Assembly: GCA_035402645.1 (NCBI GenBank)
Contig: DAONDQ010000001.1
Location: forward strand, 15,680-79,679
Reading direction: 5' to 3'
Length of the DNA: 64,000 bases
Origin: Candidatus Cloacimonadota bacterium
Lineage (GTDB): Bacteria > Cloacimonadota > Cloacimonadia > Cloacimonadales > DAONDQ01
The notes beneath the pieces are model-generated. The model was not told the origin of the DNA and did not search any database. It saw only the letters and a list, made by a program, of their open reading frames with translations. Made by a program: the position numbers and the translations under genes. Shown piece by piece: positions 17,837 through 63,074 of the stretch; the stretch's first letter is position 1, and each line of letters starts with the position of its first letter.

Positions 17837-20800
17837 TCACATGTTCATTATCTGATTGATGTATGTTTTTTCATCCATAAACACGACATTATTGGATATA
17901 TATTCCCCTGGTTCATATCCTCGCAATTGAAGTTCCATCTTGCCTGTCCATGATACAATCCAACTATTCAAAACAATGTCTTTATCACCAAGCCTTCTTT
18001 CAATCTCCTTGATCCGCTTATGAAATTGAATCTTCTCTGAATTGACACCTTCGTGCATTAATCCATGTGGTTCTATAAAATGAATGTATTGCTTTGTGCC
18101 ATGTAATATCCAAAGAATGAAATCAGGATGGAAATTCCCTGCTTCGAAGAATCCGACCCCTTTCCCTCGGCTCAGGTTGCGAAGCAAGAAGAGCTCCATG
18201 CTTTGGGTTTGCATTATGCGCTTATTCTCTTCGCACCAGCTTTTCAAATCCAAGACAAACTGGTACTCACTCTGGTTCAACGATACTGGTAAAACGGTAA
18301 TTCTCCCTGAATTTCTTGTATGAAGTAAAGGTTTGAAAAGATGCTTTCCAAAATTGCACACATCAAGTTCGCCGACCCTGATAACATCTTTGTTATCGCT
18401 AATATCATTTTGCAGATTTTTGATTGCTTCAATAACATTCGATGCATCTCCATCTACTATGACCTGGTATTCAGCAACATTCGGCAAATTATCATCTTCC
18501 GATGTCAATTCCCGGATTTCAAGACGAGGTTCAAGAAATTCCCTATTTCTATATTTCTGAAGTTTATCCATATAACGCTTTAATAATTCGGTCGCAACTT
18601 TCTGCAGAGTAAAGATTTCTTCATAGCTCTCGGGATGTAGGATGTAATCAGGGAGATATAATTCGTACCACGAAGCATTATGCAGCAAATCAATCAGACA
18701 CTGACTGGTGATGCTCAGATTATACCATTTCTTTTCACATCTAAATCTTTCCAGATCAAAGTACAAGTCATTATAATTCAACAGGCTCAGTTGTTCATCC
18801 TGCAAAATCACTGCCTGCTTTTGATCTTGTTGGGTACGTTTCTGTGAAGCAATTGTCTGAATGCGTGGAAACCAATTTGATACGATCTTATTCTTTTGGA
18901 GATACTCAGGTACTGAATCCAAGAGAACAGTGGGACCGTCATTCATAAAATCATATTCTTTCCCATTGATCTTCTTGGGACGTATGATCTTCAGCTTCTT
19001 CCCGAAATCATAGGTCACATTAATGGGTATGGGTATGGATTCCATCCTTTCATTACCCGGCAAACCTTCTGATGCCAGGTACTTTCTAAATTTCTCCATG
19101 AAATCTGATTCTATTCCGAATACATTCAAAGTTTCAATTTCTTCTATAAACCGCGGTTTTGTCGTGGCTTTTGTATGACCACTACGTTTCAAGCTCCACT
19201 CGAACCCTTTTAACCGTACCCCGCGTCCAAATAGTTGAATAATTTGTGTCCCTTCCGTTTTCCCCACATGCATCAGACCCATGGTGCTCACTCTCCAACA
19301 ATCCCAACCTTCTATGAATTTTTTCGAACCGATCAGCAAGTTCACTGAGGAACTTGAATCTTTGACGGTAGCGAACATGCTTTCTGTAAAATCACTATCT
19401 TTGATTAAAATTGGCATATTATCGCGTTTGGCGACAAAATCTATATGCTCGCATAGTCCTTTCGAATCACCAACATTGATCAAACCAAAGGAAGAATCTG
19501 AATTCCCCGCATATAATGCAATTTCTCCTGATTCACCTTTGATTCGTGTGAGGGATAAATGACCACCACCGCTGTTGTTGAACAAATGAAGAAGTATATG
19601 TGCATAAATAGCAGCAGGATCCGATTGGGCTATGTAATATATCTTCAAGTATTGAAAGGAACTATGGAAAATATCATTCCCTGAGCCATCCAGTAAGCCG
19701 GTATCCGCCCCTGTACCATTCATCAGCTGGTTGATATATCTCTGAAACACCTGTGGTCTGGAAAGAAAATCGGCTATGAACTTTATGACCTTACCCACAT
19801 CCGTAATCAGGTCTGCAGTGGGTACCAGAATTTGCTGATTGCCCTTTTTTTTGGTTACGGTACTTCCTACAAATACCCATAAGGGCTTTTCCAGATTAAA
19901 TAATTCCAGTTCCTTTCTTTTATCTTTGAACAGTAATAGCTGCTGATAGAACTTCAACAGACAGGCTGTTAAATATATATCCTGAACCTCCTCCAATGAC
20001 CTGGGAAGATTCAGTATCTGATAATCCTTGCCAAAACCGTCTTCATAGAACCACCTATAGGAATAATCAAAAAGAATTGCTTTGGCGTAACTTTCTGCCA
20101 GTACCTGGCTACTGGAAGCTGCCACTGCCTGTTCAAACGTTGCTGAATACTCGAAAGTAAAACCTCTCCCACATAATTGGGCACGTCTGGTAAAAAAAGC
20201 ACCCTCTTCTGTCCCGCTCATTCCCCGGTGTCCTTCGTCCACAAGCAGAAGGTTCTGGTCACCCAAGTCACGGGTGGCTTTTGTATTGGGACCGCTTTTA
20301 TCTCCAAGTTTAGTGATTTCCAGCACGTCAATTTGTTCAAGACTGCCCTCCTGTCCGGATTTCAATCTCTGTGCCAAGCCAAATCCACTTTGATTCAACT
20401 CCTCCAAATGCTGTTCTGTTAATCCCTCATTGGGGGTTATGAGAATCACATGGGAAATATCCCTCCCCAATTTTGTCTTTTTTGCATAGTGCCTGAATTG
20501 CAGCAAGTTCACATGCATGATCAGTGTTTTACCGCTTCCTGTGGCATTCTGCATGCATATCTTGTTGAGATCATCATCCGTATATGGATTTACATTTTCA
20601 TATCCAACCCAATGTTCGTTGAATTGCATAATGAAGGAATTGAGATCATTCAGCAGACCTTCACGATTCGTGAAGTACCTATCCAGGTATATTTCCACAA
20701 AGAGCAACGACAACCATTGAAAATACTTCCAGACTATGGGTCTATTTCGTCGCCTATTGATGAACAATGTATGACGCGCAATGTTCTCTTCATACGAGAG

Positions 20801-21061
20801 CAATTGTTCTCTCGTTAGACTTGAACTGTTATTGTAGAATAATTCACTATTCACCAGTGCATGATAGAATCTATGCAACCCGTCAGTGTCCAGACCTTCC
20901 GGATCAACACTTCGTATCGGTGCGGACAACCGATGAAATGGCAATTCGTTGTGATTTGCTTCCGATAGGGGATTGACTCCAAAAAGGTTGATAAGCCACT
21001 GGTTTAATACCAGTTTTTTACGAAATTCAAGTGGATTGTTCCTATTTCTTCTTGCTAACAT
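17837..21061 (-). CDS. res: Type III restriction enzyme Res subunit (SF2 helicase/nuclease)
   Basis: Helicase motif I QNATGSGKTLIMH and motif II LLLVDEGHRG. The C-terminal HPDFILWI...HFIEPHG resembles a PD-(D/E)xK-type nuclease core. Same operon as a DPPY methyltransferase. Confidence 0.8.
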   Translation of the reverse strand: MLARRNRNNPLEFRKKLVLNQWLINLFGVNPLSEANHNELPFHRLSAPIRSVDPEGLDTDGLHRFYHALVNSELFYNNSSSLTREQLLSYEENIARHTLFINRRRNRPIVWKYFQWLSLLFVEIYLDRYFTNREGLLNDLNSFIMQFNEHWVGYENVNPYTDDDLNKICMQNATGSGKTLIMHVNLLQFRHYAKKTKLGRDISHVILITPNEGLTEQHLEELNQSGFGLAQRLKSGQEGSLEQIDVLEITKLGDKSGPNTKATRDLGDQNLLLVDEGHRGMSGTEEGAFFTRRAQLCGRGFTFEYSATFEQAVAASSSQVLAESYAKAILFDYSYRWFYEDGFGKDYQILNLPRSLEEVQDIYLTACLLKFYQQLLLFKDKRKELELFNLEKPLWVFVGSTVTKKKGNQQILVPTADLITDVGKVIKFIADFLSRPQVFQRYINQLMNGTGADTGLLDGSGNDIFHSSFQYLKIYYIAQSDPAAIYAHILLHLFNNSGGGHLSLTRIKGESGEIALYAGNSDSSFGLINVGDSKGLCEHIDFVAKRDNMPILIKDSDFTESMFATVKDSSSSVNLLIGSKKFIEGWDCWRVSTMGLMHVGKTEGTQIIQLFGRGVRLKGFEWSLKRSGHTKATTKPRFIEEIETLNVFGIESDFMEKFRKYLASEGLPGNERMESIPIPINVTYDFGKKLKIIRPKKINGKEYDFMNDGPTVLLDSVPEYLQKNKIVSNWFPRIQTIASQKRTQQDQKQAVILQDEQLSLLNYNDLYFDLERFRCEKKWYNLSITSQCLIDLLHNASWYELYLPDYILHPESYEEIFTLQKVATELLKRYMDKLQKYRNREFLEPRLEIRELTSEDDNLPNVAEYQVIVDGDASNVIEAIKNLQNDISDNKDVIRVGELDVCNFGKHLFKPLLHTRNSGRITVLPVSLNQSEYQFVLDLKSWCEENKRIMQTQSMELFLLRNLSRGKGVGFFEAGNFHPDFILWILHGTKQYIHFIEPHGLMHEGVNSEKIQFHKRIKEIERRLGDKDIVLNSWIVSWTGKMELQLRGYEPGEYISNNVVFMDEKTYINQIMNM

Positions 21062-22094
21062 GAGGCTTACCGCTTTTCTTCTCGATTTGTTTCACTTCAG
21101 TTATTGCTTCCACAAAATGCTTTTCCGCTATACTGGGTTGCTTTAATTGCTCTGTATGCCACTTTTCATATTCTTTGCGAGCCTTTTCGATTGCCTTATC
21201 GTGGGCAACTTTTCCTGCGTGTGTAAGTATCTCTCTTCCGCTTAGTTTCAGAAATTCATCGAGTTTGGCAATCCAATCCCTCATATACATGGGAGTTCTA
21301 TTCAAAGCCTGTAATTCTGCAAAATCAAGATACATGGTGACTATGCGATTCAGAATATCCAACTCATTTTCATTTAGATAGTTTTTTGCCACAACGGTAT
21401 CTGTTTGTCTTGGTTCGTCTCCGATCCAATTGGTGAGTCCCATATTTAGTTTCCCGGCTTGTGCGCGTTCGTAGATGATTTCTGCAGCCGTATGCCCATG
21501 ACTTGCCCAGTGCATTTTATTCTGGATGACTTTGAAGAAGGCTTGGGAAGATTCTGCTCTCGGATCATAATCGATACTGGTGGCATATATATCCAATACC
21601 TTCCGCCAAAACAGCTTTTCCGAAGAACGGATATCCCGTATCCGCACCAGTAATTCATCGAAATAACTACCGCCTCCGTTTTTCTTCAGCCTCTCATCAT
21701 CCAGCGTAAAACCCTTGATAATATACTCGCGCAATCTCTGCGTAGCCCATTGACGGAAGTGGGTGGCAATGGTGGATTTAATTCTATAGCCAACACTGAT
21801 AATCATATCCAGACTGTAATGTGTGACCTGTCTTTGAACTTCTCTATCACCCTCATTTTGAACTATTAAGAAATCCTTAATAGTTCGATTCGAGTCCAGT
21901 TCACCTTCTGCAAAGATGTTCTTCACATGGATATTGATGTTGGCTACTGTGGTTTGAAATAGCTCTGCCAATTGTTTTTGAGTCAACCATAAGGTTTCAT
22001 TTTCCAACCTTGTTTCCAACCTCAGCTTGCCATCTGTACCGGAATAGAGAAGAATTTCACTCTTTGGAAGTTCTTTTGCTTTTTTGATCATCAT
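21042..22094 (-). CDS. rhuM: RhuM-family protein (copy 1)
   Basis: Motifs SVGYRIKS..ATHFRQWATQRLREYIIKGFTLDDERLK, FDELLVRIRDIRSSEKLFWRKV, LNRIVTMYLDFAE and PMYMRDW. The ATG at 22094 overlaps the mod stop (ATGA). Confidence 0.8.
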   Translation of the reverse strand: MMIKKAKELPKSEILLYSGTDGKLRLETRLENETLWLTQKQLAELFQTTVANINIHVKNIFAEGELDSNRTIKDFLIVQNEGDREVQRQVTHYSLDMIISVGYRIKSTIATHFRQWATQRLREYIIKGFTLDDERLKKNGGGSYFDELLVRIRDIRSSEKLFWRKVLDIYATSIDYDPRAESSQAFFKVIQNKMHWASHGHTAAEIIYERAQAGKLNMGLTNWIGDEPRQTDTVVAKNYLNENELDILNRIVTMYLDFAELQALNRTPMYMRDWIAKLDEFLKLSGREILTHAGKVAHDKAIEKARKEYEKWHTEQLKQPSIAEKHFVEAITEVKQIEKKSGKPHVSKKK

Positions 22095-24394
22095 ACATCC
22101 TCCGTTTCCCACATACTTTGGAAGAATTTTCCCTCGATGTCATATACTTCCCAATGATCTTCCTTCCTTTTCATAAGCTGCAGATTACTGCTGCCATTCA
22201 CATAAATAATGTTGTACTCTTTTCCCTTATCCTGCCTACATGTCAGTTCAAACCACGTGTTCAATACAAGGTTATCCTCTTCCAGATTATCTGTACGATT
22301 ACGCCATATCACCAATACCCTATCTTTCAAACCATCATTCGGTGCATACGGATTACGGGGTACCCAACCCTCCACTTTGCGGAACCACCATTTTCCATCC
22401 ATACGTGCTTCCAGACCACTTGCCAAAACCAATTTGGTGTTCCGGTCTCCCGGCAATTCCGGGTCAACCATGCGTGTAAAGGATGCCTGGTATCGTTGCG
22501 TTTGTGCAACATGTTCCACACGCAATCCTATCAGGTAATTGAAGGTTTCAAGCAAATCCACGTTTTTAATGATATACTCGTCACTTCCGGGTTTCTTCAC
22601 CTCGAGCTGATACTTGTCCGGCTCATCAAAAGCATCCACATTCAACAGACTACTGCTTCCCCGGGTTTCCACATCGAGCATGTAATGAAGCATGTGATCC
22701 TCTTTCAATCGGGGATTATTGGATATTGCCTTATCCTGTATGGTATCCTCGGAAAAGACCAGATTATTCAGTGTATCCTCGTAACTCTCCAGTCGCAGAT
22801 ACTTGATACATTGGCTGATGCCCGTATGCCTGTTTACAGGCTTTCCATCCTTCCAATCCCTGCTATAAACCACCTTCTCCATTCTTGGCTTCAAGACCGT
22901 ATCAAAGTAATTACCCATCTCCACTAAAACATACTTCCGGTCTCCACCATCTTCACGATTTAGATTAAGAACTGCATGACCTGTTGTACCGGAACCTGCA
23001 AAATAGTCGACCCAATTCCCAGTTTTTATCCGTACAGAAGCAAATAACTGTAATAATAATTTTGAAGGTTTAGGATAGGATACAGCATACTGTTCTCCTA
23101 ATAATTGATGTAATTCATCATTTGCATCTTCGTTTGTGCCCCATCCGAATTTACCTAGATCATTTACATCATATTGCGAATAGTTTGCTTCTCCTGTATT
23201 CCCTAATCTCAAAAGGGTATCTCTCATCCTTTTTTCACGAGGTTCAGTAACGATTCTCCTTAAATATAAATCCTGAGTAATATATAGAGTTTTATCAGCA
23301 GCATAATTCATCATAGTATCTTGTGAATAACGCCAGTTACCCTCAATAATGAGTTCTTTTGCAAGAACTCCTTTTTCGATTACTAAATCAGATAAAAGTG
23401 TTAAATACATATTTCCTGCACTTATTTTCGAGCCCTCTTTTAAATAGTAATCTTTATCTTTATACTTGCTAACAATACCAGGTGGAATTATTCGTTTATC
23501 CCTCTGATTCGATGGATTTACACACGGGTAAGTCTCTTCTTCTGATGTTATTTCCCCGACTAGTCCACCAAACTTTGTTATGTCTTTTGCAATACATATG
23601 ATATAGTCTTTCATTTTTGCTATGTAACCACTTAGAAAAGTCCCTTTTTTCTTTTTTTCCCAAATCAAAGTTGAAAAAAAAGCAGTTTTCCCATATCTCT
23701 CAGTTATTAATGTAGATAAATGTTCTTGTTCTTCATCTCCAATGCTAATAAAAAAAACACCTTCTGATGATAAGGTCTTTAATCCTAATTCTACACGGTC
23801 ACCAATCATTGTAAGCCATGTTGAGGATGGATATGAATCTTTATATATAAATCCATCATCTCCAGTATTATAAGGAGGATCAATGTATATACACTTCACT
23901 TGCTCTTTATACTTTGCCTGTATAAGGTTCAGCGCTTGATAATTCTCGCTATGGATGAGCAGTCCATCGCAATGTTCGTCAAAATCACGGATGGAATCAA
24001 TCAGTTTGGCTTTAAAGGCATCATCAAAGAACTTCGTATCCAGTACCAGCTTGTCGTTGGCTTTTAGAAAATCCACCGTCAGTGGATTGTTGTAGGAATG
24101 AGTCACAAGGTCTCCCTTGATCTCATCCACGGCAAAGAGTTTTATCCATTCCTCATGCTGTGCATGATTGGCAATTATCTCCGGATATAACTCTTGAGGT
24201 ATCCTGTCCAGTGTGATGCAGTAATTAGTTTCCACCACAAATTTCTTTTTCAGCCACAGCTTCTTCTGGAAGTCTTCCAATTGAGCCAGGAATTCAATGA
24301 GTTTCCCTGCTATCCTGCGTAACACCCTGACCTTATTAAGATAAGTCTCCACAGCCGGGGCTTCGGCATTTTCTAAGTCATCCAGACGCATCAC
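22091..24394 (-). CDS. mod: Type III-like DNA methyltransferase Mod, C-terminal (catalytic) fragment of a frameshifted gene
   Basis: Motif IV IYIDPPYNTG and motif I DYFAGSGTTGHAV (beta-class N6A/N4C MTase). This frame is open upstream to 24427 and reads FYIKNEVMRLDD, continuing the upstream ORF if one T is removed. Confidence 0.8.
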   Translation of the reverse strand: MMRLDDLENAEAPAVETYLNKVRVLRRIAGKLIEFLAQLEDFQKKLWLKKKFVVETNYCITLDRIPQELYPEIIANHAQHEEWIKLFAVDEIKGDLVTHSYNNPLTVDFLKANDKLVLDTKFFDDAFKAKLIDSIRDFDEHCDGLLIHSENYQALNLIQAKYKEQVKCIYIDPPYNTGDDGFIYKDSYPSSTWLTMIGDRVELGLKTLSSEGVFFISIGDEEQEHLSTLITERYGKTAFFSTLIWEKKKKGTFLSGYIAKMKDYIICIAKDITKFGGLVGEITSEEETYPCVNPSNQRDKRIIPPGIVSKYKDKDYYLKEGSKISAGNMYLTLLSDLVIEKGVLAKELIIEGNWRYSQDTMMNYAADKTLYITQDLYLRRIVTEPREKRMRDTLLRLGNTGEANYSQYDVNDLGKFGWGTNEDANDELHQLLGEQYAVSYPKPSKLLLQLFASVRIKTGNWVDYFAGSGTTGHAVLNLNREDGGDRKYVLVEMGNYFDTVLKPRMEKVVYSRDWKDGKPVNRHTGISQCIKYLRLESYEDTLNNLVFSEDTIQDKAISNNPRLKEDHMLHYMLDVETRGSSSLLNVDAFDEPDKYQLEVKKPGSDEYIIKNVDLLETFNYLIGLRVEHVAQTQRYQASFTRMVDPELPGDRNTKLVLASGLEARMDGKWWFRKVEGWVPRNPYAPNDGLKDRVLVIWRNRTDNLEEDNLVLNTWFELTCRQDKGKEYNIIYVNGSSNLQLMKRKEDHWEVYDIEGKFFQSMWETEDV

Positions 24395-25454
24395 TTCGTT
24401 CTTTATGTAAAAAATCCAATTCCCGCTTCAGAAAATTGCCCAAATCCTTGTGTATAAAATAGTCCATCGTATTGCGGGCTGTGTAATGATTCAAATATTT
24501 TGCCAGCAGAATACGATTTTTGTCATTTTCCGTCGGTGTTTTTGCTGTAAGCAATTGTAGATAACCTGAAGTCTGTTCCTCCTTTTTCAAAGCCTGTAGT
24601 ATCACCTGCACAGCTTCCTGGTTCTTCACATCCCGCCAGGAATTTTCCTGTTTGTTTTTTTCTTCATCGGAGCGATACTCGAAATTGATGACCAATTCTC
24701 TCTTGTCATTCCATTCAATAGGCTTCTCCCCGTGAATGATAAAGAAGCGCTTTTTGGCATCGGATTCCTTGATATTGCCATGTTCACCTTCCATGGCATC
24801 GACGATTTTGAAATGAACCATCAATTTTTCAGGTAAGTCTTCTTCCAGGTTAAACTCTTCCTGCCCCATGTCTTTACCCGATTTTTCTATAATCTTTTTA
24901 TTAGCCTGCACAAGGTCAAAACTGAAATTATTAAAGTACTCAGTAGTTTTGATATAATACTGGTCGGCATTCGCCCAATGCAGTTTGATTTCCTCCCCGT
25001 TATACGGTACGGCATAAGAGGCTGCTTTGTCTGCTGTTTCCCTGGTAATATACCTGCGGGATATGAAATCACCATCCTCATAATAGCGTTCAAAGAAACG
25101 ATACAAATGGTCATATATTTCACTCTCCGCAGATGCTGAATTTCCTGCAGCCTCATAGTTGGCTCTTGCTTCCTGTACCTTGGGAGATTTCTCAGGTTCT
25201 TCCACACCATAAGCCCTGGCATTTTCCAATTCCTGGTCAAGAACAGCTTTCAATCGTACTTTACGGTTCTCATCTTCCCTGCCGAATGTTTCCTGTATGA
25301 TCCCGAGTAGGTCATTTTCGATAAAATCACTGACTTGATTCGCTTTGGCATGCATGATACGATAGAATCCAAAATCCAAATCCGGTTGATTCAGTTGGAA
25401 TAGTTCCCTTAATTTGTTAACCAGTTTCATCCTTAATTGTGCATTTGTTGGCAT
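24378..25454 (-). CDS. mod: Mod N-terminal fragment (frameshifted)
   Basis: Start taken at MPTNAQLRMKLVNKLRELFQLNQPDLDFGFYRIM (GGGAG SD upstream of 25454). Terminates 17 nt inside the next ORF. Together the two pieces would give ~1150 aa. Confidence 0.7.
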   Translation of the reverse strand: MPTNAQLRMKLVNKLRELFQLNQPDLDFGFYRIMHAKANQVSDFIENDLLGIIQETFGREDENRKVRLKAVLDQELENARAYGVEEPEKSPKVQEARANYEAAGNSASAESEIYDHLYRFFERYYEDGDFISRRYITRETADKAASYAVPYNGEEIKLHWANADQYYIKTTEYFNNFSFDLVQANKKIIEKSGKDMGQEEFNLEEDLPEKLMVHFKIVDAMEGEHGNIKESDAKKRFFIIHGEKPIEWNDKRELVINFEYRSDEEKNKQENSWRDVKNQEAVQVILQALKKEEQTSGYLQLLTAKTPTENDKNRILLAKYLNHYTARNTMDYFIHKDLGNFLKRELDFLHKERSDASG

Positions 25455-25603
25455 GAATTCTCCCTGTAAATGTTCTAATACCTGTATAAATTGAATATTC
25501 TGGAATGAATTCCCCATGTCAAATAAAAAACAAATTCCTGTCAGCATTCGTTTAACAGGAATTTGAGATATTCTATAGATAATTACCAGTATGCTATTCT
25601 ATA

Positions 25604-26830: not shown

Positions 26831-27115
26831 TTACTCATTCCCCTTCTTCAGAATGCATTGATAAAATTCCAGTACGCAGGGACATACCAGTTTATACCAA
26901 ACCTGGTTATTCACTTTTCTACTCGAGATCAGACCTGCATTTTTCAGTACAGACAGGTGTCTCGATACGGTCGACATATCGTCATGTATTCTCTCCTGCA
27001 GTTCGCAGACACAATATTCCCGCTCATCCAGCATATCCAGGATGAATAATCTTGTCGGGTGAGCCATCGCCTTCATGACAATGCTCATTTGAACATACTT
27101 GGCATCTGTTTTCAT
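26831..27115 (-). CDS. arsR: ArsR/SmtB-family metalloregulator
   Basis: Winged-helix core HPTRLFILDML..EYCVCELQERI..STVSRHLSVLKNAGLI with a CVC metal(loid)-binding motif. Confidence 0.85.
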   Translation of the reverse strand: MKTDAKYVQMSIVMKAMAHPTRLFILDMLDEREYCVCELQERIHDDMSTVSRHLSVLKNAGLISSRKVNNQVWYKLVCPCVLEFYQCILKKGNE

Positions 27116-27137: not shown

Positions 27138-27163
27138 CGTATTTGGCAAAATATGCAAATACG
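27138..27163. promoter_or_regulatory. candidate ArsR operator (8-bp inverted repeat CGTATTTG-N10-CAAATACG) overlapping the putative promoter
   Basis: Perfect 8-bp arms 23-48 nt upstream of the arsR ATG. A TTGACG -35-like hexamer (minus strand, 27162-27167) overlaps the right arm. Confidence 0.4.
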
Positions 27164-27272
27164 TCAAGAGATTATTTGTGATCAACTTTCTATTGCATAC
27201 GAGTCTATCAATCTTATGCAGAAAATTTCAGCTTTTCCCTGACTTAATCATTAGTATTCCTCATATATTAAT

Positions 27273-27355
27273 TACGGTAACATTACGGTACCAATACGGT
27301 ATTAATACGGTAAATTACCGTAATGATACCGTATTGGTACCGTATTTATATAGTA
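27273..27355. promoter_or_regulatory. array of helically phased TACGGTA heptamers forming a long palindrome
   Basis: TACGGTA at 27273, 27284, 27295 and 27306. Inverted TACCGTA at 27316, 27327 and 27338, with a degenerate site at 27349. Spacing is exactly 11 bp. 27284-27344 is a 61-nt palindrome centred on 27314 with 2 mismatches. Confidence 0.5.
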
Positions 27356-27415
27356 ATGTTCATAATAGCACCAATGAGAATTTTCGATACAAAGCTTATG
27401 CTGGTTGTTGATACG

Positions 27416-27441
27416 AAAAAGGGACACATGAAATGCGTCCC
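27416..27441 (-). terminator. rho-independent terminator of the 609-aa gene
   Basis: On the minus strand, the GGGACGC-ATTTCAT-GTGTCCC hairpin is followed by TTTTT, 13 nt after the stop at 27454. Confidence 0.6.
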
Positions 27442-27453
27442 TTGAAGATCGGT

Positions 27454-29283
27454 TTAGAAATTGGATGGTGGTTTTTTGAATTTCCAGCTTTCTGATTCGA
27501 ATGGGGTTAATCCTGCATGTGCATGAACTTCAGGGAAATTTGGCGGTTGTGTATATGAAAAGCGATTATCGAAATGATAGTCCTTCTTATATCCTACACC
27601 AACACCACTTGCACCTGTACAATTAATACCAGTGCTCGTGTCACCCCATTTATAGTTTACAAAATCCCATGTGCCATTATGGTTGGCTGTATCGGTTGTA
27701 CTTCTATGCACAAAACCTCTGCGTCTCTGCGCTACTGAACCATAAAGATGAATGGTTCCCCTTTCAAGATATGGCTGTCTTTCAGGCCAAAGAGGATTAT
27801 ACCACGGATAGTCCAGAATACCGGGCCACATCATGGTATCAGTTTGGGGATACAGGTGGGTATGCAGATCCACCTTTGTATACATAGAATTCCCAATTCT
27901 TGTATCAGGTGTTGAAGGATGGGGTCCTTGATATTCAAATGTAAATACACCGTCTTTATGTGGATTGCCATCTCCATTTCCCAATGCGCATAAGGCTGCA
28001 TATATCCAAATGCCCTGGGCGTCGGAACCACAAGTATCGTGGTGTCTGGTTCCTGAATACATTGGGTCTGCAATTCCATATTTGATCAGAATTCGTTTTT
28101 CGGAAACCAACCCAACAATATCATATGGGTTCGAATTAGCCGGAATACCATTACCATCCGGATTCTGACCTAATGCGGTTCCCTGAAGTTTAATATTGCC
28201 TACCAGGTACAGAGTATCTTTGCATCCCCAAGTCTGTTTCCCGCTGAAGATACCGTCAATCCATGTTTTCACCGGGATGTAAATCGATGAGTTATTGACT
28301 GAAATGGAAGGTCCGGGAGTCCAGACTGTGTCCAATTTCGTTAAGTAATACCAGTATAGTTCTGGTCCCGTGGGAGGTGGGTAGGCAGCATAGCAATCGA
28401 TGGATTCTCTTTGCGCATTGACCGTAACATGACCAATCCATGATTGCCCACTTGAACCATTGACGTGTACGCGAAGAAGAGTATTATTATCATGGTCAAT
28501 TTGCAGGTTATTTCCTGCCTGGATTGCCAGTGCCTGGTCAGGAAACTCGATTTTCGGTACGTGTTCATAGTAATGATCGAGAAATACACTTTCATAAGGT
28601 ATCGTTCCGTTATTCGATTGGAATATCCCTGCGGTTGAAACATTGGCATAGAATGTTGGCCATCCACCATTATTCGTACTTCCACCCTGCTCAATCCAAA
28701 TATTTGAATTACTGTGCACTTTCCCGTAAATCACATCGGGTCCCCAGAAATAAACTCTCCCTGCAACTTCACCCATATCGGCATTTTCTGAGGCTTCAGT
28801 ATCGGTGAAATAATGATATCCGGCAAACGTGGAACGATGAATGTCTTTTTCCGCATACTGCTTCACCGGTGATATGTTGTTTGACCAAAGAATACCATTA
28901 CCGCCTCCTCTTTTTGCCGTTATGAGGCTTTTCACAACATACCCGTTTGTCGAATAATATCCGCCACCTGTTGTTACATTTGATTTAGCGATCTTGGTTT
29001 TAAGAAAATACGTTGTTCTGGTATTTGTCCCAAGCAGTTCGAATTGCTGAATCGGCAGGGTAAAGCCTTCCCCTGAATAATCAGTTGTCTTGCAGGCAAG
29101 CAATCCACGAAACGCCTGGTACCTGAGAAAATGAGTTTCCTGTAGGGAATCATTCTGTGTTCGTTTGGATACAACATCTTTTAAGGCAACCGCTGTCATA
29201 CTGATGCTTGAAAGAAAGGTGATGATCACAACAGCCATAGCCAATGATAGATTCCCACGTTGTGACATAATTAATCTACTCAT
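27454..29283 (-). CDS. large PilX-N-terminal-like pilus-associated protein, paralogue A
   Basis: N-terminus MSQRGNLSLAMAVVIITFLSSISMTAVAL (hydrophobic helix, no G|FTLIE prepilin site). Co-linear similarity to ORFs 29478-31304 and 42652-44487, including VIYGKVHSNS.IW, AALCALG.GDG.PHKDG and the terminal GYKKDYHFDNRFS.TQPPNFPE...KFKKPP.NF. Confidence 0.6.
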   Translation of the reverse strand: MSRLIMSQRGNLSLAMAVVIITFLSSISMTAVALKDVVSKRTQNDSLQETHFLRYQAFRGLLACKTTDYSGEGFTLPIQQFELLGTNTRTTYFLKTKIAKSNVTTGGGYYSTNGYVVKSLITAKRGGGNGILWSNNISPVKQYAEKDIHRSTFAGYHYFTDTEASENADMGEVAGRVYFWGPDVIYGKVHSNSNIWIEQGGSTNNGGWPTFYANVSTAGIFQSNNGTIPYESVFLDHYYEHVPKIEFPDQALAIQAGNNLQIDHDNNTLLRVHVNGSSGQSWIGHVTVNAQRESIDCYAAYPPPTGPELYWYYLTKLDTVWTPGPSISVNNSSIYIPVKTWIDGIFSGKQTWGCKDTLYLVGNIKLQGTALGQNPDGNGIPANSNPYDIVGLVSEKRILIKYGIADPMYSGTRHHDTCGSDAQGIWIYAALCALGNGDGNPHKDGVFTFEYQGPHPSTPDTRIGNSMYTKVDLHTHLYPQTDTMMWPGILDYPWYNPLWPERQPYLERGTIHLYGSVAQRRRGFVHRSTTDTANHNGTWDFVNYKWGDTSTGINCTGASGVGVGYKKDYHFDNRFSYTQPPNFPEVHAHAGLTPFESESWKFKKPPSNF

Positions 29284-29477: not shown

Positions 29478-31304
29478 TCAGAAATTCGCTGGTGGTTTCT
29501 TGAATCTCCAACTTTCTGATTCGAAAGGTGTCAAACCAGCCCTTACATGGATCTCAGGAAAATTAGGGGGTTGTGTGAACGAGAAACGGTTATCGAAATG
29601 ATAATCCTTCTTGTAACCAACACCTGTACCCGACGCTCCGGGATAGTTCATTCCATCACTGGTGGAACCCCATTTATGCTGATCCAAATTCCAGGTGCCA
29701 TCGTGATGTCCGTAATCATATAAGGGACGATGGACTACACCTCGTCTTCTTTGTGCAATCGACCCATAGAGGTGTATCGATCCTCGTTCGAGATAGGGAT
29801 CCGCTTCTGGCCATAAGGGATTATACCAGGGGAAATCAATCGTTCCGGGCCAGGGATATGCATTCGTGGGTGGAAATCTCCTTTTATGGAGGTCAATTTT
29901 CGTATAGTTGATGTCGTTTAATCTGATATCAGGTGTTGAATAATGTGGTGCTTGGTATTCAAAACTGAAGATACCATCCTTGTGCGGATCCCCGTTTCCA
30001 TCCCCTAATGCACAGAGGGCAGCATATATCCAGACTCCCCCTGTATCGGGACCACTGGTGGGATGCCTTCTTCCATCGTATAAAGGATCATTGAGCCCAT
30101 ATTTTAAATAAATCCTCTGCTCGGAGATGAGACCCACAAAATCGTAGGGATTCCCAAAAGAGGCATTTCCGTTTCCATCAGGACTTGTTCCCAGGGGAGT
30201 ACCTGATAGTTCGATGTTACCAACCAAAAAAAGTGTATCTCTGCAGCCCCAGGTCTGTCTTCCCGAGAAAGTGCCATCAATCCATAATTTGCATTCACAA
30301 TATATGGAATTATTGCTCACAGAAAGCATTGGTCCCGGAGTCCATACAGTATCATTTGGGGAGAGGTAATACCAATACAATTCAGGACCGGTTGGTGGTG
30401 GATATTGGGCATAACAGTCAATCGATTCTCGCTGTGTTGCCGGAACAATCTGTCCAATCCATGATTGTGCCTGGTTACCTGAAATATGGACTCGAAGAAT
30501 TGTATTTACATCATAGGGAAGTCCAACATGAGGACCTGCCTGAACAGCATTGGCAACGCTGGGAAATTCAAGTTCTGCCACATGTTCGTAATAATGATTA
30601 TGAAAGACTGTCTGATACGGAATGGTTCCACTCACGCAACGAATGATCCCGCAAGTGGAAACGGGGGCATAAAACAAAGGCCAACCTCCGTTGATACCAC
30701 CACCCTGGTTGGCAATCCAAATATCCGAATTGCTGTGCACCTTGCCATAGATGACATCATTCCCTGCAAATACGATCCTGCCGTCATCACCGGGCATTCC
30801 AACATCCTCCGATACTTCTGTATTCGTGAAATAATGATAACCGGCAAAAGTGGAGCGCCGAACATCTTTTTCAGCATATTTTCTGACGGTGGAGTAATTT
30901 TGAGACCAGAATATCCCATTCCCGCCGCCTCTCTTTGCTGTAACGAGGCTTTTGACGGTATAACCGTTGGTCATATAATACCCGCCACCGGTGGTTACAT
31001 TCGATTGTTCCACCTTTGTCTTCATGAAATAGGTGGTCCTGGAATCTGATCCCAACATCTCGAATTGCTGTAGGGGCAATGTGAAGCCTGCTTCGGAATA
31101 GTCGGTGATTTGACATGCCATAGTACCGCGGGATGCTTCATAACGGAGCAGATGGGTTTCCTGGAGACCATCCTGTTGGATTCGACAAGCAAGAACATCC
31201 TTGAGGGCAACTTCTGTTAGAGTAATGCTGGATAGGAATGCGATAATGAGAACAGCCATGGCAACTGCAATATTCCCTCTTTCATCCATCTTCAAAATGC
31301 TCAT
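29478..31304 (-). CDS. large PilX-N-terminal-like pilus-associated protein, paralogue B
   Basis: Same architecture and motifs as paralogue A. Separate gene with a 194-nt spacer containing a hairpin (29369-29390). Confidence 0.6.
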   Translation of the reverse strand: MSILKMDERGNIAVAMAVLIIAFLSSITLTEVALKDVLACRIQQDGLQETHLLRYEASRGTMACQITDYSEAGFTLPLQQFEMLGSDSRTTYFMKTKVEQSNVTTGGGYYMTNGYTVKSLVTAKRGGGNGIFWSQNYSTVRKYAEKDVRRSTFAGYHYFTNTEVSEDVGMPGDDGRIVFAGNDVIYGKVHSNSDIWIANQGGGINGGWPLFYAPVSTCGIIRCVSGTIPYQTVFHNHYYEHVAELEFPSVANAVQAGPHVGLPYDVNTILRVHISGNQAQSWIGQIVPATQRESIDCYAQYPPPTGPELYWYYLSPNDTVWTPGPMLSVSNNSIYCECKLWIDGTFSGRQTWGCRDTLFLVGNIELSGTPLGTSPDGNGNASFGNPYDFVGLISEQRIYLKYGLNDPLYDGRRHPTSGPDTGGVWIYAALCALGDGNGDPHKDGIFSFEYQAPHYSTPDIRLNDINYTKIDLHKRRFPPTNAYPWPGTIDFPWYNPLWPEADPYLERGSIHLYGSIAQRRRGVVHRPLYDYGHHDGTWNLDQHKWGSTSDGMNYPGASGTGVGYKKDYHFDNRFSFTQPPNFPEIHVRAGLTPFESESWRFKKPPANF

Positions 31305-31577: not shown

Positions 31578-32885
31578 TTATTGTTGGATACGCTTACGAA
31601 ATTCCTTTGCCCTTTCGAGGAGTATATCCTCATCCAGAGTAAGTAGTTTCCTGTTCTTCATGACAATCTTGCCATTAATGATGACATTCTTTACCTGCTC
31701 GGTGGATGTGCAGTAAACAAGATGTGAATAAGGATCGTAAACAGGCTGTGAATCGATCGTATTCATATCGATCATGATCATATCTGCGAGTTTGCCCACT
31801 TCCAGCGAACCGATCTTTTCATCGAGATCGAGAGCTTTTGCACCTCCATTGATGCACTTTTGCAATATATGTTTTGCAGGAAGGAAAGAGGCATCCCGGT
31901 TAAGAGCCTTATGAAGACGGGCTGTTGTCGAAATTTCGCTGAACATATCGAGTTTATTATTACTTGCAACACCATCGGTGCCCAGGCAGTAGTTCACATG
32001 ATACTGCTCGTACTTATGAATAGGGGCAAAACCGGATGCAAGTTTCAGATTACTGATGGTATTGACTGCAATGGAAACACCTCTTTTATGCAGAATCTCA
32101 AGTTCTCTATCTTCCAGATGGATACCGTGAGCAAGAAGGGTCTTTGCTTCGAAAATACCAAGACCATCAAGGTATTCAACCGGTAATTTGCCGTGTTCCT
32201 TCGTGCAGGCTTCCACCTCCTCCTGTGTCTCTGAAAGATGGATATGGAGCAGCATATTTTCATCCAGGGCATTTTTCAGGGCTTTCTTCAGATTATCCTT
32301 ATTGCAGGTATAGATCGCATGCGGGGCAATGGCAAAGGTGATTAAGTCATTTTTGTTTTCCTTATGCAACCGCGTTACATAATTGATCATATCATCGGCA
32401 CCCTGGTGCATGGCAACAGGGTAGTCAATTACCCCTTCCCCAATCACAGCGCGGATACCTGCAACTTCACAGGATGTAGCTGCTTCATGACTGTAAAAGT
32501 ACATATCACTAAATGTCGTGATACCGCTTCTTATCATTTCGGCGGCAGCATGTTCCACACCAAGTCGAACAAATTCAGCATTCATGTATTTGGCTTCTGC
32601 GGGCCAGATCTTCTCATTTAGCCAGCGGATAACCGGCATGTCATCTGCCATGCCTTTAAAATAACTCATTCCTGCATGTGTATGACCATTGACCAATCCT
32701 GGAAGAACGAGCATATCGCTCGCATCGATCACTTCCCTACCCTGCCAGTCATTCATATCCAGTATGGTCCCAATCTCTGCTATCTGCTTTTCTATGATCG
32801 CGATACAGCCATTTTCAATGACATGCATCTCTTGATCAAAAGTCAGAACCATTGCGTTTTTAATCAGGATATCCGCTGTATTCAT
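31578..32885 (-). CDS. mtaD: amidohydrolase, 5-methylthioadenosine/S-adenosylhomocysteine deaminase-like
   Basis: LPGLVNGHTHAGMSYFKG metal-binding HxH motif and HLSET, ~435 aa. Start taken at MNTADILIKNAMV (32885). Confidence 0.75.
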   Translation of the reverse strand: MNTADILIKNAMVLTFDQEMHVIENGCIAIIEKQIAEIGTILDMNDWQGREVIDASDMLVLPGLVNGHTHAGMSYFKGMADDMPVIRWLNEKIWPAEAKYMNAEFVRLGVEHAAAEMIRSGITTFSDMYFYSHEAATSCEVAGIRAVIGEGVIDYPVAMHQGADDMINYVTRLHKENKNDLITFAIAPHAIYTCNKDNLKKALKNALDENMLLHIHLSETQEEVEACTKEHGKLPVEYLDGLGIFEAKTLLAHGIHLEDRELEILHKRGVSIAVNTISNLKLASGFAPIHKYEQYHVNYCLGTDGVASNNKLDMFSEISTTARLHKALNRDASFLPAKHILQKCINGGAKALDLDEKIGSLEVGKLADMIMIDMNTIDSQPVYDPYSHLVYCTSTEQVKNVIINGKIVMKNRKLLTLDEDILLERAKEFRKRIQQ

Positions 32886-33020: not shown

Positions 33021-34274
33021 TTACTTGTAGCCTTGGCTCATTGCCTGTCCCAAATCGAAGATGGGTAGGTAAATCACGATAATGATCGAGCCCACAACCA
33101 CACCCATGATAATGATCAGTGATGGTTCAATTAGAACCGTGAGACGGTCAATAACGGAATCAACCAATTTCTCGTAGAATTCACCTGCTTTTTTCAATAG
33201 TTGATCCATATCACCTGTTTCTTCACCAGTATTCATCAATTGAAGGAGTGTAGGCGGGAACATTCCGGTTTTTCTGAATGCATTTGCCACACCATAGCCT
33301 TCTTTCACCCATGCTCTTGCCTTGTTGATCGCTTCTTCGATCGGCGCATTCTGCACAACTCCTTCCACCAGTTCCAAAGTATCCATAATGGGTACACCGG
33401 CAGCAGTCAGAATGGAGAATGTACGTGCAAACTTACTCATAATCGAATTGTTCAGCAGTTGACCAATCACGGGTAATTTCAGTTTAAGTCTATCGTAGAT
33501 ATACCTGCCCCTGTCAGTTAGAGTGACCAGGAAACCGACAATGAAAAGTATGATCAGTATGAGAATACTGACGAACAGGTTATGAACAATGAAATTACTG
33601 ATGGCAATGGCAATAAGAGTAGGACCGGGAAGATCAGCACCAAAATTGCTATAAACATCCTGGAATTTGGGTATGATGAAATAGAACAGACCCCAAACGA
33701 CAAGACACAAGAATACCAGGATGAAAACCGGATATGACATTGCAGAAATCACTTTTCTGCGTGTGTCTTCCATTTTCTCGAGATAGTCTGATAATTCGCC
33801 CAGAACCGTGTGCAGTGTTCCTGATACTTCACCAGCTTTCACCAATGCAATATAGAGCGGATTGAATACACCCGGGTGCTGTTCCATCGCCTCAGAAAGG
33901 GAGAATCCTTTCTTGATATCATCACTGAGTCTGTTGAGTACCTTCTGGAAACGAGCGGTCTTTTCTTCTTTAGCCAAATCAGAAATGGCTTTTTCAATCG
34001 TAAGACCTGCAGAGAACATTGTGGATAATTGGCGTGTAAAAAATACCAATGTACGCAATGAAACGCTGGTTCTGAGTTTGTAGATGGTGAAAACGACCTT
34101 GTCGAAGAGAGACATTTTTGTGCGCATTGCGCTCTCAGAAATGCTCTTCACGGAAATGATCGTACCGCCATCCTTCGATAGCTTATCAATCACTTCATCG
34201 AGTGATGAGGCTTTCATCATGCCTTCAACACGAGCCCCTTTCGCATCATGTATGATATACGAAAATGCTGCCAT
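33021..34274 (-). CDS. pilC: type IV pilus platform protein PilC (GspF family)
   Basis: ~417 aa with a duplicated T2SS-F architecture and 3 TM segments. Immediately downstream of pilB. Confidence 0.85.
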   Translation of the reverse strand: MAAFSYIIHDAKGARVEGMMKASSLDEVIDKLSKDGGTIISVKSISESAMRTKMSLFDKVVFTIYKLRTSVSLRTLVFFTRQLSTMFSAGLTIEKAISDLAKEEKTARFQKVLNRLSDDIKKGFSLSEAMEQHPGVFNPLYIALVKAGEVSGTLHTVLGELSDYLEKMEDTRRKVISAMSYPVFILVFLCLVVWGLFYFIIPKFQDVYSNFGADLPGPTLIAIAISNFIVHNLFVSILILIILFIVGFLVTLTDRGRYIYDRLKLKLPVIGQLLNNSIMSKFARTFSILTAAGVPIMDTLELVEGVVQNAPIEEAINKARAWVKEGYGVANAFRKTGMFPPTLLQLMNTGEETGDMDQLLKKAGEFYEKLVDSVIDRLTVLIEPSLIIIMGVVVGSIIIVIYLPIFDLGQAMSQGYK

Positions 34275-34306: not shown

Positions 34307-36001
34307 TTATTCGACTATAGTCAGTTTGATGACTTCACGAATCGTAGTCATGCCACGCTTCATCTTGACGATTGCGCTGTCATGCAGGGTACGCATACCT
34401 TTTCTCAAAGCCGCTTCGCGTATAAGGTCCTGATTTCCGCCATCATAGATGATCTTACGGATCTCGGCATCTACGAGCAGAACTTCGAATATACCTGTAC
34501 GACCGGAGTAACCTGTATTATCGCAATGAACACAACCAATGCCATTCTTGAACTGGATCGTTGCTGCTTCTTCAGGAGAGATACCAGCATCTTTCAGTTC
34601 ATCAGCGGAAGGCTTATATTCTGTAACGCAATGTGGGCATACCTTACGAACAAGACGCTGTGCCATCACAAGACTCAAGGATGATCCGACAAGGTATGGT
34701 TTGATACCAATATCGATCATACGAGTCACAGTGGAAGGTGCATCGTTAGCGTGAAGAGTACTGAAAACAAGGTGACCGGTAAGAGAGAATTTCGTCGCAA
34801 TATCTGCGGTTTCTTCATCTCGAATTTCACCAATAAGCACGATATCCGGGTCTTGACGAAGAACGGAACGCAATGCCGAACCGAAAGTCAAACCTATCTG
34901 TTCCTTGGTTTCAATTTGTGTGATACCGTCCAAGCGATATTCGACAGGATCTTCAACCGTGATGATGTTAGTCTCAATGTCCTGAATGGTTTTCAATGAT
35001 GCATGCAAAGTGGTTGATTTACCGCTTCCAGTAGGACCGGAAACGATGATGATACCATACGGACGACGGATGACTCGTTTGAATGTTACCATATCATCAT
35101 CTTCAAATCCAAGGGTCTGAAGCTTGAAACCGAATTCACCTTTATCAAGAAGACGCATCACCACCTTTTCACCTATCACTGTTGGTGTGATGGATACACG
35201 GACGTCCACACTCTTCATCTGGGTTTTCAGAGAAATATGACCGTCCTGGGGTAAACGTCTTTCCGCAATGTTCAACTTTGACATAACCTTCACAATGGAT
35301 ATAAGTCCCATGTGAAGACCAATCGGCGGATTCATGACTTCACGCAAGGCACCGTCAACACGGAATCGGATTCGGGTGTTCTTGGTAAGCGGTTCAATAT
35401 GTATATCAGTTGCACCAGCTTTGATTGCTTCCGTAATGATCAGATTGATCAATTTAACAACGGGAGCATCAGCAGAGCCTTGCGCACCGATGTTGATTTC
35501 GTTTTCATCATCATCCATGGCGACAAAATCAAAATTACCAACAGCATCTTCGACCTGAGAGGTCGTTCTGATACTCTTATAATATTTTTCCAGAGTATCT
35601 GTTAATGCCTCTTCGCCAATGAGTATCGGTTTGATATTCTTAGACAGGAGTTTTTTCAGGCTGTCGAGAATTTCAATATTCTCAGGGTCGGTCATGGCAA
35701 CTACCAAGCCATCCTTTGTGTCTCGAACGGCAATGACTCGGTTTTCGACAGCGAACATTTCAGGAATCAGTCCCACTACATCGACATTCAGGTCTTTCAT
35801 CTCCTGCATATCTGCAATGTCATATCCTAATTGTTCACTTAAAGCCACGAGGAGTTTTTTTTCATCCAGATAGCCTAATTTTATGAGTGTTTCACCAATT
35901 TTTAACCGGAAGTTTCCTTGCTTTGATAGTGCATCGCGCAATTGCTCTTCGGTTATCAACTGTTTATCGATCAGTAACTGACCTAAACGTTTGAAAGTCA
36001 T
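34307..36001 (-). CDS. pilB: type IV pilus assembly ATPase PilB (GspE family)
   Basis: Walker A VSGPTGSGKSTTL. N-terminal T2SSE_N-like region (LGQLLIDKQLITEEQL). Tetracysteine CPHC...CVHC motif. Confidence 0.9.
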   Translation of the reverse strand: MTFKRLGQLLIDKQLITEEQLRDALSKQGNFRLKIGETLIKLGYLDEKKLLVALSEQLGYDIADMQEMKDLNVDVVGLIPEMFAVENRVIAVRDTKDGLVVAMTDPENIEILDSLKKLLSKNIKPILIGEEALTDTLEKYYKSIRTTSQVEDAVGNFDFVAMDDDENEINIGAQGSADAPVVKLINLIITEAIKAGATDIHIEPLTKNTRIRFRVDGALREVMNPPIGLHMGLISIVKVMSKLNIAERRLPQDGHISLKTQMKSVDVRVSITPTVIGEKVVMRLLDKGEFGFKLQTLGFEDDDMVTFKRVIRRPYGIIIVSGPTGSGKSTTLHASLKTIQDIETNIITVEDPVEYRLDGITQIETKEQIGLTFGSALRSVLRQDPDIVLIGEIRDEETADIATKFSLTGHLVFSTLHANDAPSTVTRMIDIGIKPYLVGSSLSLVMAQRLVRKVCPHCVTEYKPSADELKDAGISPEEAATIQFKNGIGCVHCDNTGYSGRTGIFEVLLVDAEIRKIIYDGGNQDLIREAALRKGMRTLHDSAIVKMKRGMTTIREVIKLTIVE

Positions 36002-63005: not shown

Positions 63006-63074
63006 ACATATTATTTTTGGGTCTGCTGACGCGGACCCCTACTGATACCTGTTACCTGTTACCTGGTACCTAAT

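Follow-up and report, generated by a model that had tools for sequence, protein, structure and literature searches.

REP and REPIN sequences form within-genome populations of tens to hundreds of strictly intergenic copies, which persist vertically and are not accompanied by target duplications. Some BIMEs (RIP/RIB) carry, in addition, binding sites for DNA-bending proteins. Regularly repeated sites are also found in other settings. The parC site of plasmid R1 consists of ten 11-bp iterons bound by ParR, and Pho boxes, the sites of OmpR/PhoB-family regulators, are built from an 11-bp unit of 7 conserved and 4 less conserved bases arranged head to tail. In the pac site of phage P1, hexamers are arranged 4+3. 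Short extragenic palindromic repeats have been described in Proteobacteria as REP/BIME and REPIN sequences, together with RAYT transposases (PMC3733652, PMC3116915). A REP unit is a palindrome of 20-40 bp with a conserved GTAG or CGTC head (PMC3733652).

In this study, we analyzed a helically phased array of heptamers in a Cloacimonadota genome and searched for its relatives. The window (i.e., the whole 64-kb stretch of DNA that was analyzed) contains the array between an uncharacterised 609-aa gene and an arsR operon. The features of the locus are as follows.

27254 to 27366, no strand: whole repeat element, delimited with a profile from 42 Cloacimonadota copies.
27273 to 27312, plus strand: left arm, four 11-bp units with the core TACGGTA and the spacers ACAT, CCAA and TTAA.
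27313 to 27315, no strand: symmetry centre AAT; the best palindrome centre is 27314.
27316 to 27355, plus strand: right arm, three TACCGTA units and the variant TATAGTA, a unit that recurs in other copies.
27419 to 27443, minus strand: intrinsic terminator of the 609-aa gene (context, outside the element), an 11-bp stem with 5 GC pairs, then a T-run.
27138 to 27172, minus strand: arsR promoter and inverted repeat (context, outside the element), -35 box TTGACG and CGTATTTG-N10-CAAATACG.

TACGGTA starts at positions 27273, 27284, 27295 and 27306, and TACCGTA at 27316, 27327 and 27338; the eighth unit, TATAGTA, starts at 27349. Units begin every 11 bp, the sole exception being the gap across the array centre, which is 10 bp. 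The core at 27284-27344 is a 61-nt palindrome with exactly 2 mismatches (pairs 27303/27325 and 27305/27323), and 27273-27355 taken as a palindrome has 7. Tandem Repeats Finder reported period-11 arrays at 27271-27323 and 27316-27350, and an inverted-repeat search gave arms of 43 nt each, 84% complementary and separated by 1 nt. Because TACGGTA is a palindrome except for its central base (TAC-G-GTA), the distinction between direct and inverted units is encoded by G versus C at that base only. The window holds 17 heptamers, 7 of them in the array, versus 2.6 +/- 1.6 expected (100 shuffles, maximum 8), and no heptamer pair with 11-bp spacing and up to 2 mismatches occurs elsewhere in the 64 kb. 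Other short tandem repeats found in the window with the same program lie at 31713-31784, 40819-40866, 54134-54182 and 63042-63071 (periods 24/15, 21, 15 and 7).

Sequence and repeat analysis thus confirmed every detail of the original prediction as regards the eight phased sites and the 61-nt core with 2 mismatches, and the heptamer excess and the 11-bp starts bear out its view of the array as non-random and helically phased. The eighth site had been called degenerate. Its sequence does deviate, but TATAGTA or TATAGCA also occupies the third or fourth right-arm unit in copies of the element (see below) from OY759316.1, CAZWJK01 and DAHVPA01, and recurrence in several genomes identifies it as a conserved variant rather than a product of decay.

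We scanned 185,579 species genomes, one per species, for three perfect TACGGTA heptamers at 11-bp spacing. The scan matched more than 114 loci, whereas about 0.3 were estimated for uniform random sequence. At least 43 loci were found in 6 Cloacimonadota assemblies, this and the other copy counts being lower bounds from an incomplete and biased census, since three perfect heptamers were demanded. The family is present in at least 7 Cloacimonadota genomes. One Cloacimonadales chromosome of 4.38 Mb (OY759316.1) carries at least 19 copies, which span 0.15 to 3.36 Mb. An nhmmer profile built from 42 Cloacimonadota copies recognized the element in the window on both strands, at 27255-27365 (plus strand, E 3.8e-26) and 27366-27254 (minus strand, E 1.5e-26), as a single copy within the 64 kb.

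The palindrome-centred copies, together with that of the window, align in register over approximately 110-150 bp. From the outside in, their common layout comprises a weak pyrimidine-rich end, CCATA..GCA, 4-5 units of (G/C)CA(A/T)-TACGGTA and an A-rich centre, followed by 4-5 units of TACCGTA-(A/T)TG(G/C), TGC..TATGG and a purine-rich end. The consensus of the 11-bp unit is approximately CAW-TACGGTA-N, whereas the element ends are weaker and genome-specific. Most other copies have AAAAA or CATTG at the centre, versus AAT in the window copy. In 398 kb of Cloacimonadota DNA, 224 heptamers are located inside 45 elements and 28 outside, and isolated heptamer pairs outside elements were absent from these 398 kb. 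What is scattered is the whole cassette and not the single site.

Copies within a genome are 79-89% identical and those of different genomes 73% on average; no pair within a genome reaches 95% identity. These values indicate that the family is old and has had no recent burst. The window and the other copy-bearing loci have no 25-mer in common, and contigs identical to the window came from GCA_964460515.1 and digester metagenomes. The array belongs to an imperfectly palindromic repeat family of Cloacimonadota, whose dispersed copies are strictly intergenic. It had initially been regarded as an unexplained site belonging to the arsR locus, a view that does not hold, because dozens of unrelated intergenic loci in this phylum share its architecture, spacers and flanks.

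The element could not be assigned to a described family. Rfam contained no family at threshold, the best match being a chance miRNA hairpin model (46.6 bits versus 88), and a known RNA family was rejected because all Rfam matches were such sub-threshold miRNA-like hairpins. BLAST searches against 72,556 plasmid and 50,697 phage records gave no match, and the searchable literature on the heptamer, on Cloacimonas or Cloacimonadota repeats and on phased heptamer transposase sites contained no description of the element. Further simple tandem repeats (CTAGCACCTAG..., GGTGTTAGGTGCTAGG...) share long intergenic regions with it on OY759316.1, at L098 4390-4500 and L041 about 2760-2800.

All 42 other copies are intergenic. 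They are flanked by divergent genes in 10 cases, convergent genes in 2 and tandem genes in 23, and the orientation of the element relative to the downstream gene shows no bias among the 42 copies. Outward-facing TTGAC(A) is enriched 55-110 nt from the centre (20 matches in five 10-nt bins versus about 1.3 per bin further out), and the inward-facing reverse complement of TTGAC is not enriched around the copies. This enrichment just past the element end indicates that many copies immediately precede sigma-70-type promoters. Measured from the outermost heptamer, the distances to TTGAC cluster approximately 10 bp apart (n=25; Rayleigh p 0.005 for 10 bp and 0.05 for 10.5 bp, in a test that was run over several periods).

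Genes downstream of the copies are mixed and include those for secreted T9SS proteins, hydrolases, a methylase, trigger factor and transporters, among others. Neither transposases or integrases nor a RAYT (Y1 transposase) gene are among the recurrent neighbour families, and no half-elements or transposases were detected in approximately 400 kb around the copies. Recurrent neighbours were also considered as candidates for a mobiliser or binder and rejected: T9SS cargo, methylases, enhancer-binding proteins and ABC ATPases were the only ones, and all are common families. Inspection of copy coordinates versus orientations on OY759316.1 revealed no pattern of chromosome polarity of the Ter- or KOPS-like type. 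An outward promoter formed by the conserved TGnTATAGT unit was likewise discarded, since genes on that side are not preferentially co-oriented.

One case points to spread by duplication. On OY759316.1, an 871-bp duplication (L015/L065) includes the element, a promoter and a gene, and ends at the distal edge of the element. At three loci (L015 5055-5908, L065 3964-4780 and L023 887-1336), the element precedes a gene for a conserved hypothetical protein of 150-190 aa, which has no Pfam match; on OY759316.1, this gene is part of the duplication. Target-site duplications of 5 bp or longer were not found above the null: the longest flanking direct repeats averaged 4.8 nt, versus 4.6 nt when flanks were paired across copies; shorter duplications, of 2-4 bp, may be present. 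A clean filled-versus-empty site was not recovered between genomes, since at 52-73% protein identity synteny does not extend far enough for a precise junction.

In other samples, contigs of this species (L134, L135, L136, L243 and L244) start or end at 27162-27170, 27237 and 27370. L244 retains the 609-aa gene and the element and continues into unrelated DNA from 27237, i.e., 18 nt past the element, where the arsR side should begin. This divergence and the contig ends near the element show that the locus is structurally variable around it, and indicate that, at strain level, the DNA between element and arsR promoter has been rearranged.

At the locus itself, arsR (HTH_5, minus strand, 26831-27115) starts 158-240 bp from the array and is followed by genes for an ArsP_1 permease and a thioredoxin-like protein. 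ArsR and the permease are 68-77% identical to the proteins of Cloacimonadota loci. On the other side, the 609-aa gene stops at 27454, and the terminator hairpin at 27443-27419 separates it from the array. Gene calls and the hairpin search therefore agree with the context given in the original prediction, i.e., the distance to arsR, the 609-aa gene and a terminator of its own.

Several further features of the window may be recorded here. The 609-aa gene and a 608-aa gene are tandem paralogues (27454-29283 and 29478-31304, minus strand; 66.5% identical); they have no Pfam match, and their hydrophobic N-terminus resembles, by eye, that of a minor pilin. They adjoin type IV pilus/T2SS genes (T2SSF at 33021-34274 and T2SSE at 34307-36001). 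A PorV-like gene is also present in the window; together with the repeat family and the ArsR and permease identities, it suggests that the source organism belongs to Cloacimonadota. Directly adjoining the arsR operon is a type III restriction-modification cluster (17837-25547, minus strand), which encodes a Res helicase (1074 aa), a RhuM-family protein, an N6/N4 methylase (767 aa) and a 389-aa unknown protein, and which may be a strain-variable defence island.

The -35 box of arsR, TTGACG, is 146 nt from the element centre, and the 8-N10-8 inverted repeat CGTATTTG-N10-CAAATACG is located at 27138-27163. A box composed of TTGAC and (G)CTATTTGGCAAA(T)A is common to the window and to the regions upstream of arsR in L101, L050, L137 and L138. 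In L101, this promoter-operator module occupies 363-400, its counterpart in the window being 27138-27172, and the CTATTTGGCAAA-type box of the window falls inside the 8-N10-8 repeat. TTGAC with (G)CTATTTGGCAAA(T)A is probably the ArsR box of operons of the ArsR / ArsP_1 permease / thioredoxin-like type. The ArsR operator is likely this TATTTGGCAAATA-like box near the arsR promoter and not the array, because the box overlaps the promoter and is shared with four arsR loci, most of which have no array. The suggestion that the 8-N10-8 repeat would suit ArsR better than the array is strengthened by the recurrence of the TATTTGGCAAATA-like box at these four homologous loci.

We also examined 80 metagenomic loci with homologues of the ArsP_1 permease (53-80% identity), several of which also have an ArsR homologue. 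A heptamer pair was found in none of these 80 homologous loci (0/80), in conflict with the idea that the array would be conserved upstream of orthologous arsR operons; the arsR operon does not include the element as a conserved component. The array was accordingly rejected as the ArsR operator, given its position upstream of the -35 box at a distance of approximately 100 nt or more, its absence from 80/80 loci and the presence of another box suited to this role. At this locus, the element is most probably a bystander or a general modulator of promoter surroundings and not an arsR-specific switch.

Some copies are nevertheless associated with related genes, an ArsR-family gene being located downstream of 3 of the 43 copies. 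In L101, whose ArsR is 73% identical to that of the window, an ArsP_1 permease gene comes after arsR, and the element directly adjoins the -35 box; in L071, a copy lies upstream of an ArsR-family paralogue that is 28% identical to the window ArsR. The distance between the element and the conserved promoter is approximately 95 nt in the window and 0 nt in L101. The element is absent from the arsR promoters of L050, the closest Cloacimonadales arsR-permease operon, and of L137 and L138, as well as from further orthologous promoters (that of the DUF3467 gene in L056 and others). Homologous operons that carry a copy in different genomes are arsR (window and L101), DUF4405-helicase (L024 and L097) and that of the 150-190-aa protein (L015, L065 and L023), and the genomes that share them are 52-73% identical at the protein level. 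Such coincidences upstream of homologous operons, arsR included, exceed the chance expectation, which is 0.2-0.7 by a rough estimate (p approximately 0.01-0.04). They are no more than suggestive, and hint at a role of the element in host regulation rather than that of a bystander.

Whether the palindrome serves as a protein site or as a hairpin can be addressed by comparing copies. Across 40 of them, the heptamer columns are invariant or nearly so, with a mean information of 1.69 bits for heptamers, 1.23 bits for spacers and 0.30 bits for flanks. Arm positions pair in 72.6% of cases within a copy, versus 71.7% when arms are shuffled between copies. The spacer positions beside the centre are mostly unpaired; the column pair 68/87, for example, is unpaired in 32 of the 40 copies. 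The similarity of the two pairing values implies that complementarity is a by-product of conserved near-palindromic heptamers, and it speaks for an array of phased protein sites on duplex DNA rather than for a hairpin under selection. A unit of 11 bp in which 9-10 positions are constrained, present once per helical turn, would be the signature of a protein on one DNA face. Cooperative binding to one face, as originally proposed, accordingly still appears the best reading of these sequences. The cruciform or RNA hairpin proposed along with it fared less well. The window copy can indeed fold, with -28 kcal/mol as DNA (z -6.7) and -42.9 kcal/mol as RNA (z -6.2), but the arms of the family as a whole keep no complementarity outside the heptamers. 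As an intrinsic terminator the element is unsuited, its stem being AT-rich and lacking a T-run.

TACGGTA arrays were also found beyond Cloacimonadota. Multi-copy palindromes in some Bacteroidales MAGs have this heptamer and this phase, but their spacers differ and they carry GC-rich clamps, flanks that are unrelated to the Cloacimonadota ends. They occur in rumen and gut Bacteroidales as near-perfect palindromes with 3+3 or 4+4 TACGGTA units at 11 bp (L009, L011, L028, L035, L038, L043, L049, L051, L067, L075, L078, L085-L087, L099, L100 and L106); one example reads CCTCCGCCATTTT-[TACGGTA GTAT]x3-TACGCTTTAAAAGCGTA-...-AAAATGGCGGAGG. In other Bacteroidota, TACGGTA arrays are direct only. Such arrays of the Bacteroidales UMGS451 (L046, L062, L064, L076 and L103) are followed by GATAAT..TTTTTGTA(A/C)TACTTTTGTAAGG, which contains TAnnTTTG, the motif of the -7 promoter box in Bacteroidetes; the array seems to be repeated as one with this promoter.

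In IMG/VR contigs (L115/L125, L122 and L120/L124/L127), phased 11-bp heptamer arrays are located 24-450 nt from small-terminase genes. The number of viral arrays is 17 for TACGGTA and 13, 2 and 9 for three control heptamers, and L125 has, at 12900-13040, a second array, in which about eleven 11-bp units have CACTGA as their core. That control heptamers also give viral arrays, and that L125 has more than one, indicates that phased 11-bp arrays are generic in phage DNA. The same two observations weakened two notions that the Bacteroidales and viral arrays had suggested, i.e., a single conserved binder across the FCB phyla and a link to terminases.

The reading that we prefer, with a probability of roughly 0.5, is that of a phased protein-binding array that spread as a non-autonomous element. 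Its units would be binding sites for a protein on successive helical turns of duplex DNA, all on one face, with one unit bound per turn and the two arms bound in mirror orientation. Spread would have occurred as a non-autonomous, REPIN/MITE-like unit mobilised in trans, in addition to segmental duplication, and the element would have persisted for long afterwards; in the window, it has the terminator that ends the 609-aa gene on one side and the promoter of arsR on the other. As a tentative extension, which we regard as speculative, the elements may be dispersed docking sites of an undescribed filament-forming Cloacimonadota protein, possibly with relatives on the Bacteroidales TACGGTA palindromes; the subunits of this protein would line the mirrored arms immediately upstream of promoters, one for each helical turn. 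If so, they would constitute a genome-wide regulatory or architectural system whose sites are distributed and kept homogeneous like a mobile element.

Other readings have to be weighed against the phased, mobile array. The elements could be a cis-regulatory or architectural module of the host, i.e., platforms for a global regulator or a nucleoid-associated protein that would coat one DNA face upstream of approximately 1% of promoters, that of arsR included, with repeat-like spread as the route of distribution only. We consider this the main rival, possible though doubtful. Copies that abut -35 boxes, the clustering of heptamer-TTGAC distances approximately 10 bp apart, the excess of divergent over convergent intergenic regions (10 to 2) and heptamers that are still perfect in old, diverged copies all fit such a module, as do the ArsR-family genes downstream of 3 of the 43 copies and the homologous operons that both carry a copy in genomes only 52-73% identical in protein sequence. 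However, the functions of the downstream genes are heterogeneous, the element has no orientation bias relative to them, its sites are never single or paired as are usual regulon operators, and orthologous promoters occur without a copy (arsR in L050, L137 and L138, DUF3467 in L056, and others). Furthermore, the ortholog coincidences exceed chance only by a small margin, and several periods were tried in the periodicity test. The alternative of a structure-forming element, i.e., a cruciform or an RNA or ssDNA hairpin serving as a supercoil sink or insulator, a transcript-end stabiliser or, as with REP, a Y1/HUH-type substrate, seems unlikely to us. It accounts for the strong folding of the window copy as both DNA and RNA and for the near-perfect palindromes with GC-rich clamps at the base among UBA5614 copies and Bacteroidales analogues, and absent target duplications are expected for HUH-type mobilisation. 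Against it stand pairing that is no better within than between 40 copies, centre-adjacent spacers that mostly mismatch, the systematic asymmetry of the OY759316.1 subfamily (four good units in the left arm, two in the right arm) and a strict 11-bp periodicity that has no obvious purpose in a plain hairpin; moreover, the window copy lies beyond a canonical terminator and so need not be transcribed.

Much further removed from the evidence is an operator specific to this locus, serving the arsR operon or the 609-aa gene and bound by ArsR or another local regulator. The position of the array 158-240 bp upstream of arsR, and the copies upstream of ArsR-family genes in L101 (73%) and L071 (28%), are what such an operator would predict. 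Yet the element is found at dozens of unrelated loci, it is present in 0/80 homologous operons and lacking in the closest Cloacimonadales arsR-permease operon, L050, a distinct conserved box accounts for putative ArsR binding, the strain variant L244 has the element with no arsR beside it, and the distance to the promoter differs (approximately 95 nt in the window versus 0 nt in L101). The dispersed copies and the homologous loci thus largely refute this explanation, which is very unlikely. The least probable of the readings is a packaging-type (pac- or cos-like) phage site, or a small-terminase decoy, in copies spread over the host chromosome. In at least 2 lineages (L115/L125, where the large terminase is next, and L122, Terminase_2), small-terminase genes are indeed found 24-310 nt from IMG/VR arrays, and the 4+4 layout recalls the 4+3 hexamers of P1 pac. 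On the other hand, control heptamers give viral arrays as well (13, 2 and 9 versus 17 for TACGGTA), the L125 region has other 11-bp arrays too, and other viral arrays are beside an integrase, a repressor or a helicase loader. In addition, phage genes are absent near the chromosomal copies, and the 50,697 phage and 72,556 plasmid records contained no BLAST match.

The phased-array family has several implications. Cloacimonadota are abundant uncultured fermenters of anaerobic digesters, and their gene regulation and genome change are barely known. An explicit binding grammar (mirror arrays of 8-10 sites, spaced one helical turn apart, by promoters at dozens of loci) provides a handle on the binding protein, and the family allows one to test whether repeats resembling mobile elements distribute regulatory sites in this phylum. 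At the arsR locus, the element coincides with points of strain-level rearrangement, which is relevant to MAG quality. For the arsR operon, the outcome is deflationary, in that its operator would be the conserved box beside the promoter rather than the array.

Comparison with described systems places the element between several classes. With ArsR/SmtB operators, it shares a position upstream of an arsR gene; such operators are single imperfect inverted repeats that overlap the promoter, and here the box at 27138-27163, not the array, fills that role. Like REP and REPIN sequences, the element is present in high copy (at least 19 on OY759316.1) and extragenic (42/42). In contrast to their 20-40-bp hairpins, its arms are 40-55-bp tandem arrays of 11-bp units, and it has no conserved GTAG or CGTC tag (GTAG occurs only where a spacer starts with G, and the window copy has none). 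It further differs from them in that hairpin complementarity is not kept by compensatory change (72.6% versus 71.7%), a RAYT gene is not among the recurrent neighbours, and the phylum is another one. The likeness to MITEs (Correia/NEMIS, ERIC and RUP) comprises a length of approximately 100-150 bp, terminal inverted symmetry, intergenic location near promoters and genome-specific subfamilies; the element, of about 110-150 bp, is an inverted repeat throughout and has no ORF. Unlike MITEs, it showed no target-site duplication of 5 bp or longer and no related insertion sequence or transposase, near-identical recent copies are lacking, and its interior consists entirely of helically phased repeats, which known MITEs do not have.

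The parC site of plasmid R1 resembles the element in having clusters of 11-bp repeats, 4-5 on each side of a central point, with one small DNA-binding unit per helical turn that gives rise to a cooperative nucleoprotein filament. The iterons of parC, however, are all direct and confined to a single plasmid locus by parMR, whereas here the arms are inverted and copies are found chromosome-wide; no partition or replication-initiator genes lie beside the element, whose neighbours are chromosomal housekeeping and secreted-protein genes. Pho boxes are similar in that their units repeat upstream of the -35 box or overlap it. There are 2-4 of them, they differ from promoter to promoter, and together they mark out a coherent regulon; the 8-10 units of the element, in contrast, are found at unrelated genes and always within one fixed palindromic cassette whose ends are conserved. 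In its behaviour, then, the element is most like REP/BIME/REPIN sequences and MITEs, yet it departs from the defining properties of each: there is no GTAG- or CGTC-headed hairpin, no kept pairing, no detectable target duplication, and no parent insertion sequence or RAYT was found. With nothing alike in Rfam, the plasmid and phage records or the searchable literature, we place it among the dispersed intergenic palindromic repeats, as a variety of its own whose interior resembles arrays of the iteron or Pho-box type, which are absent from the REP/REPIN and MITE families.
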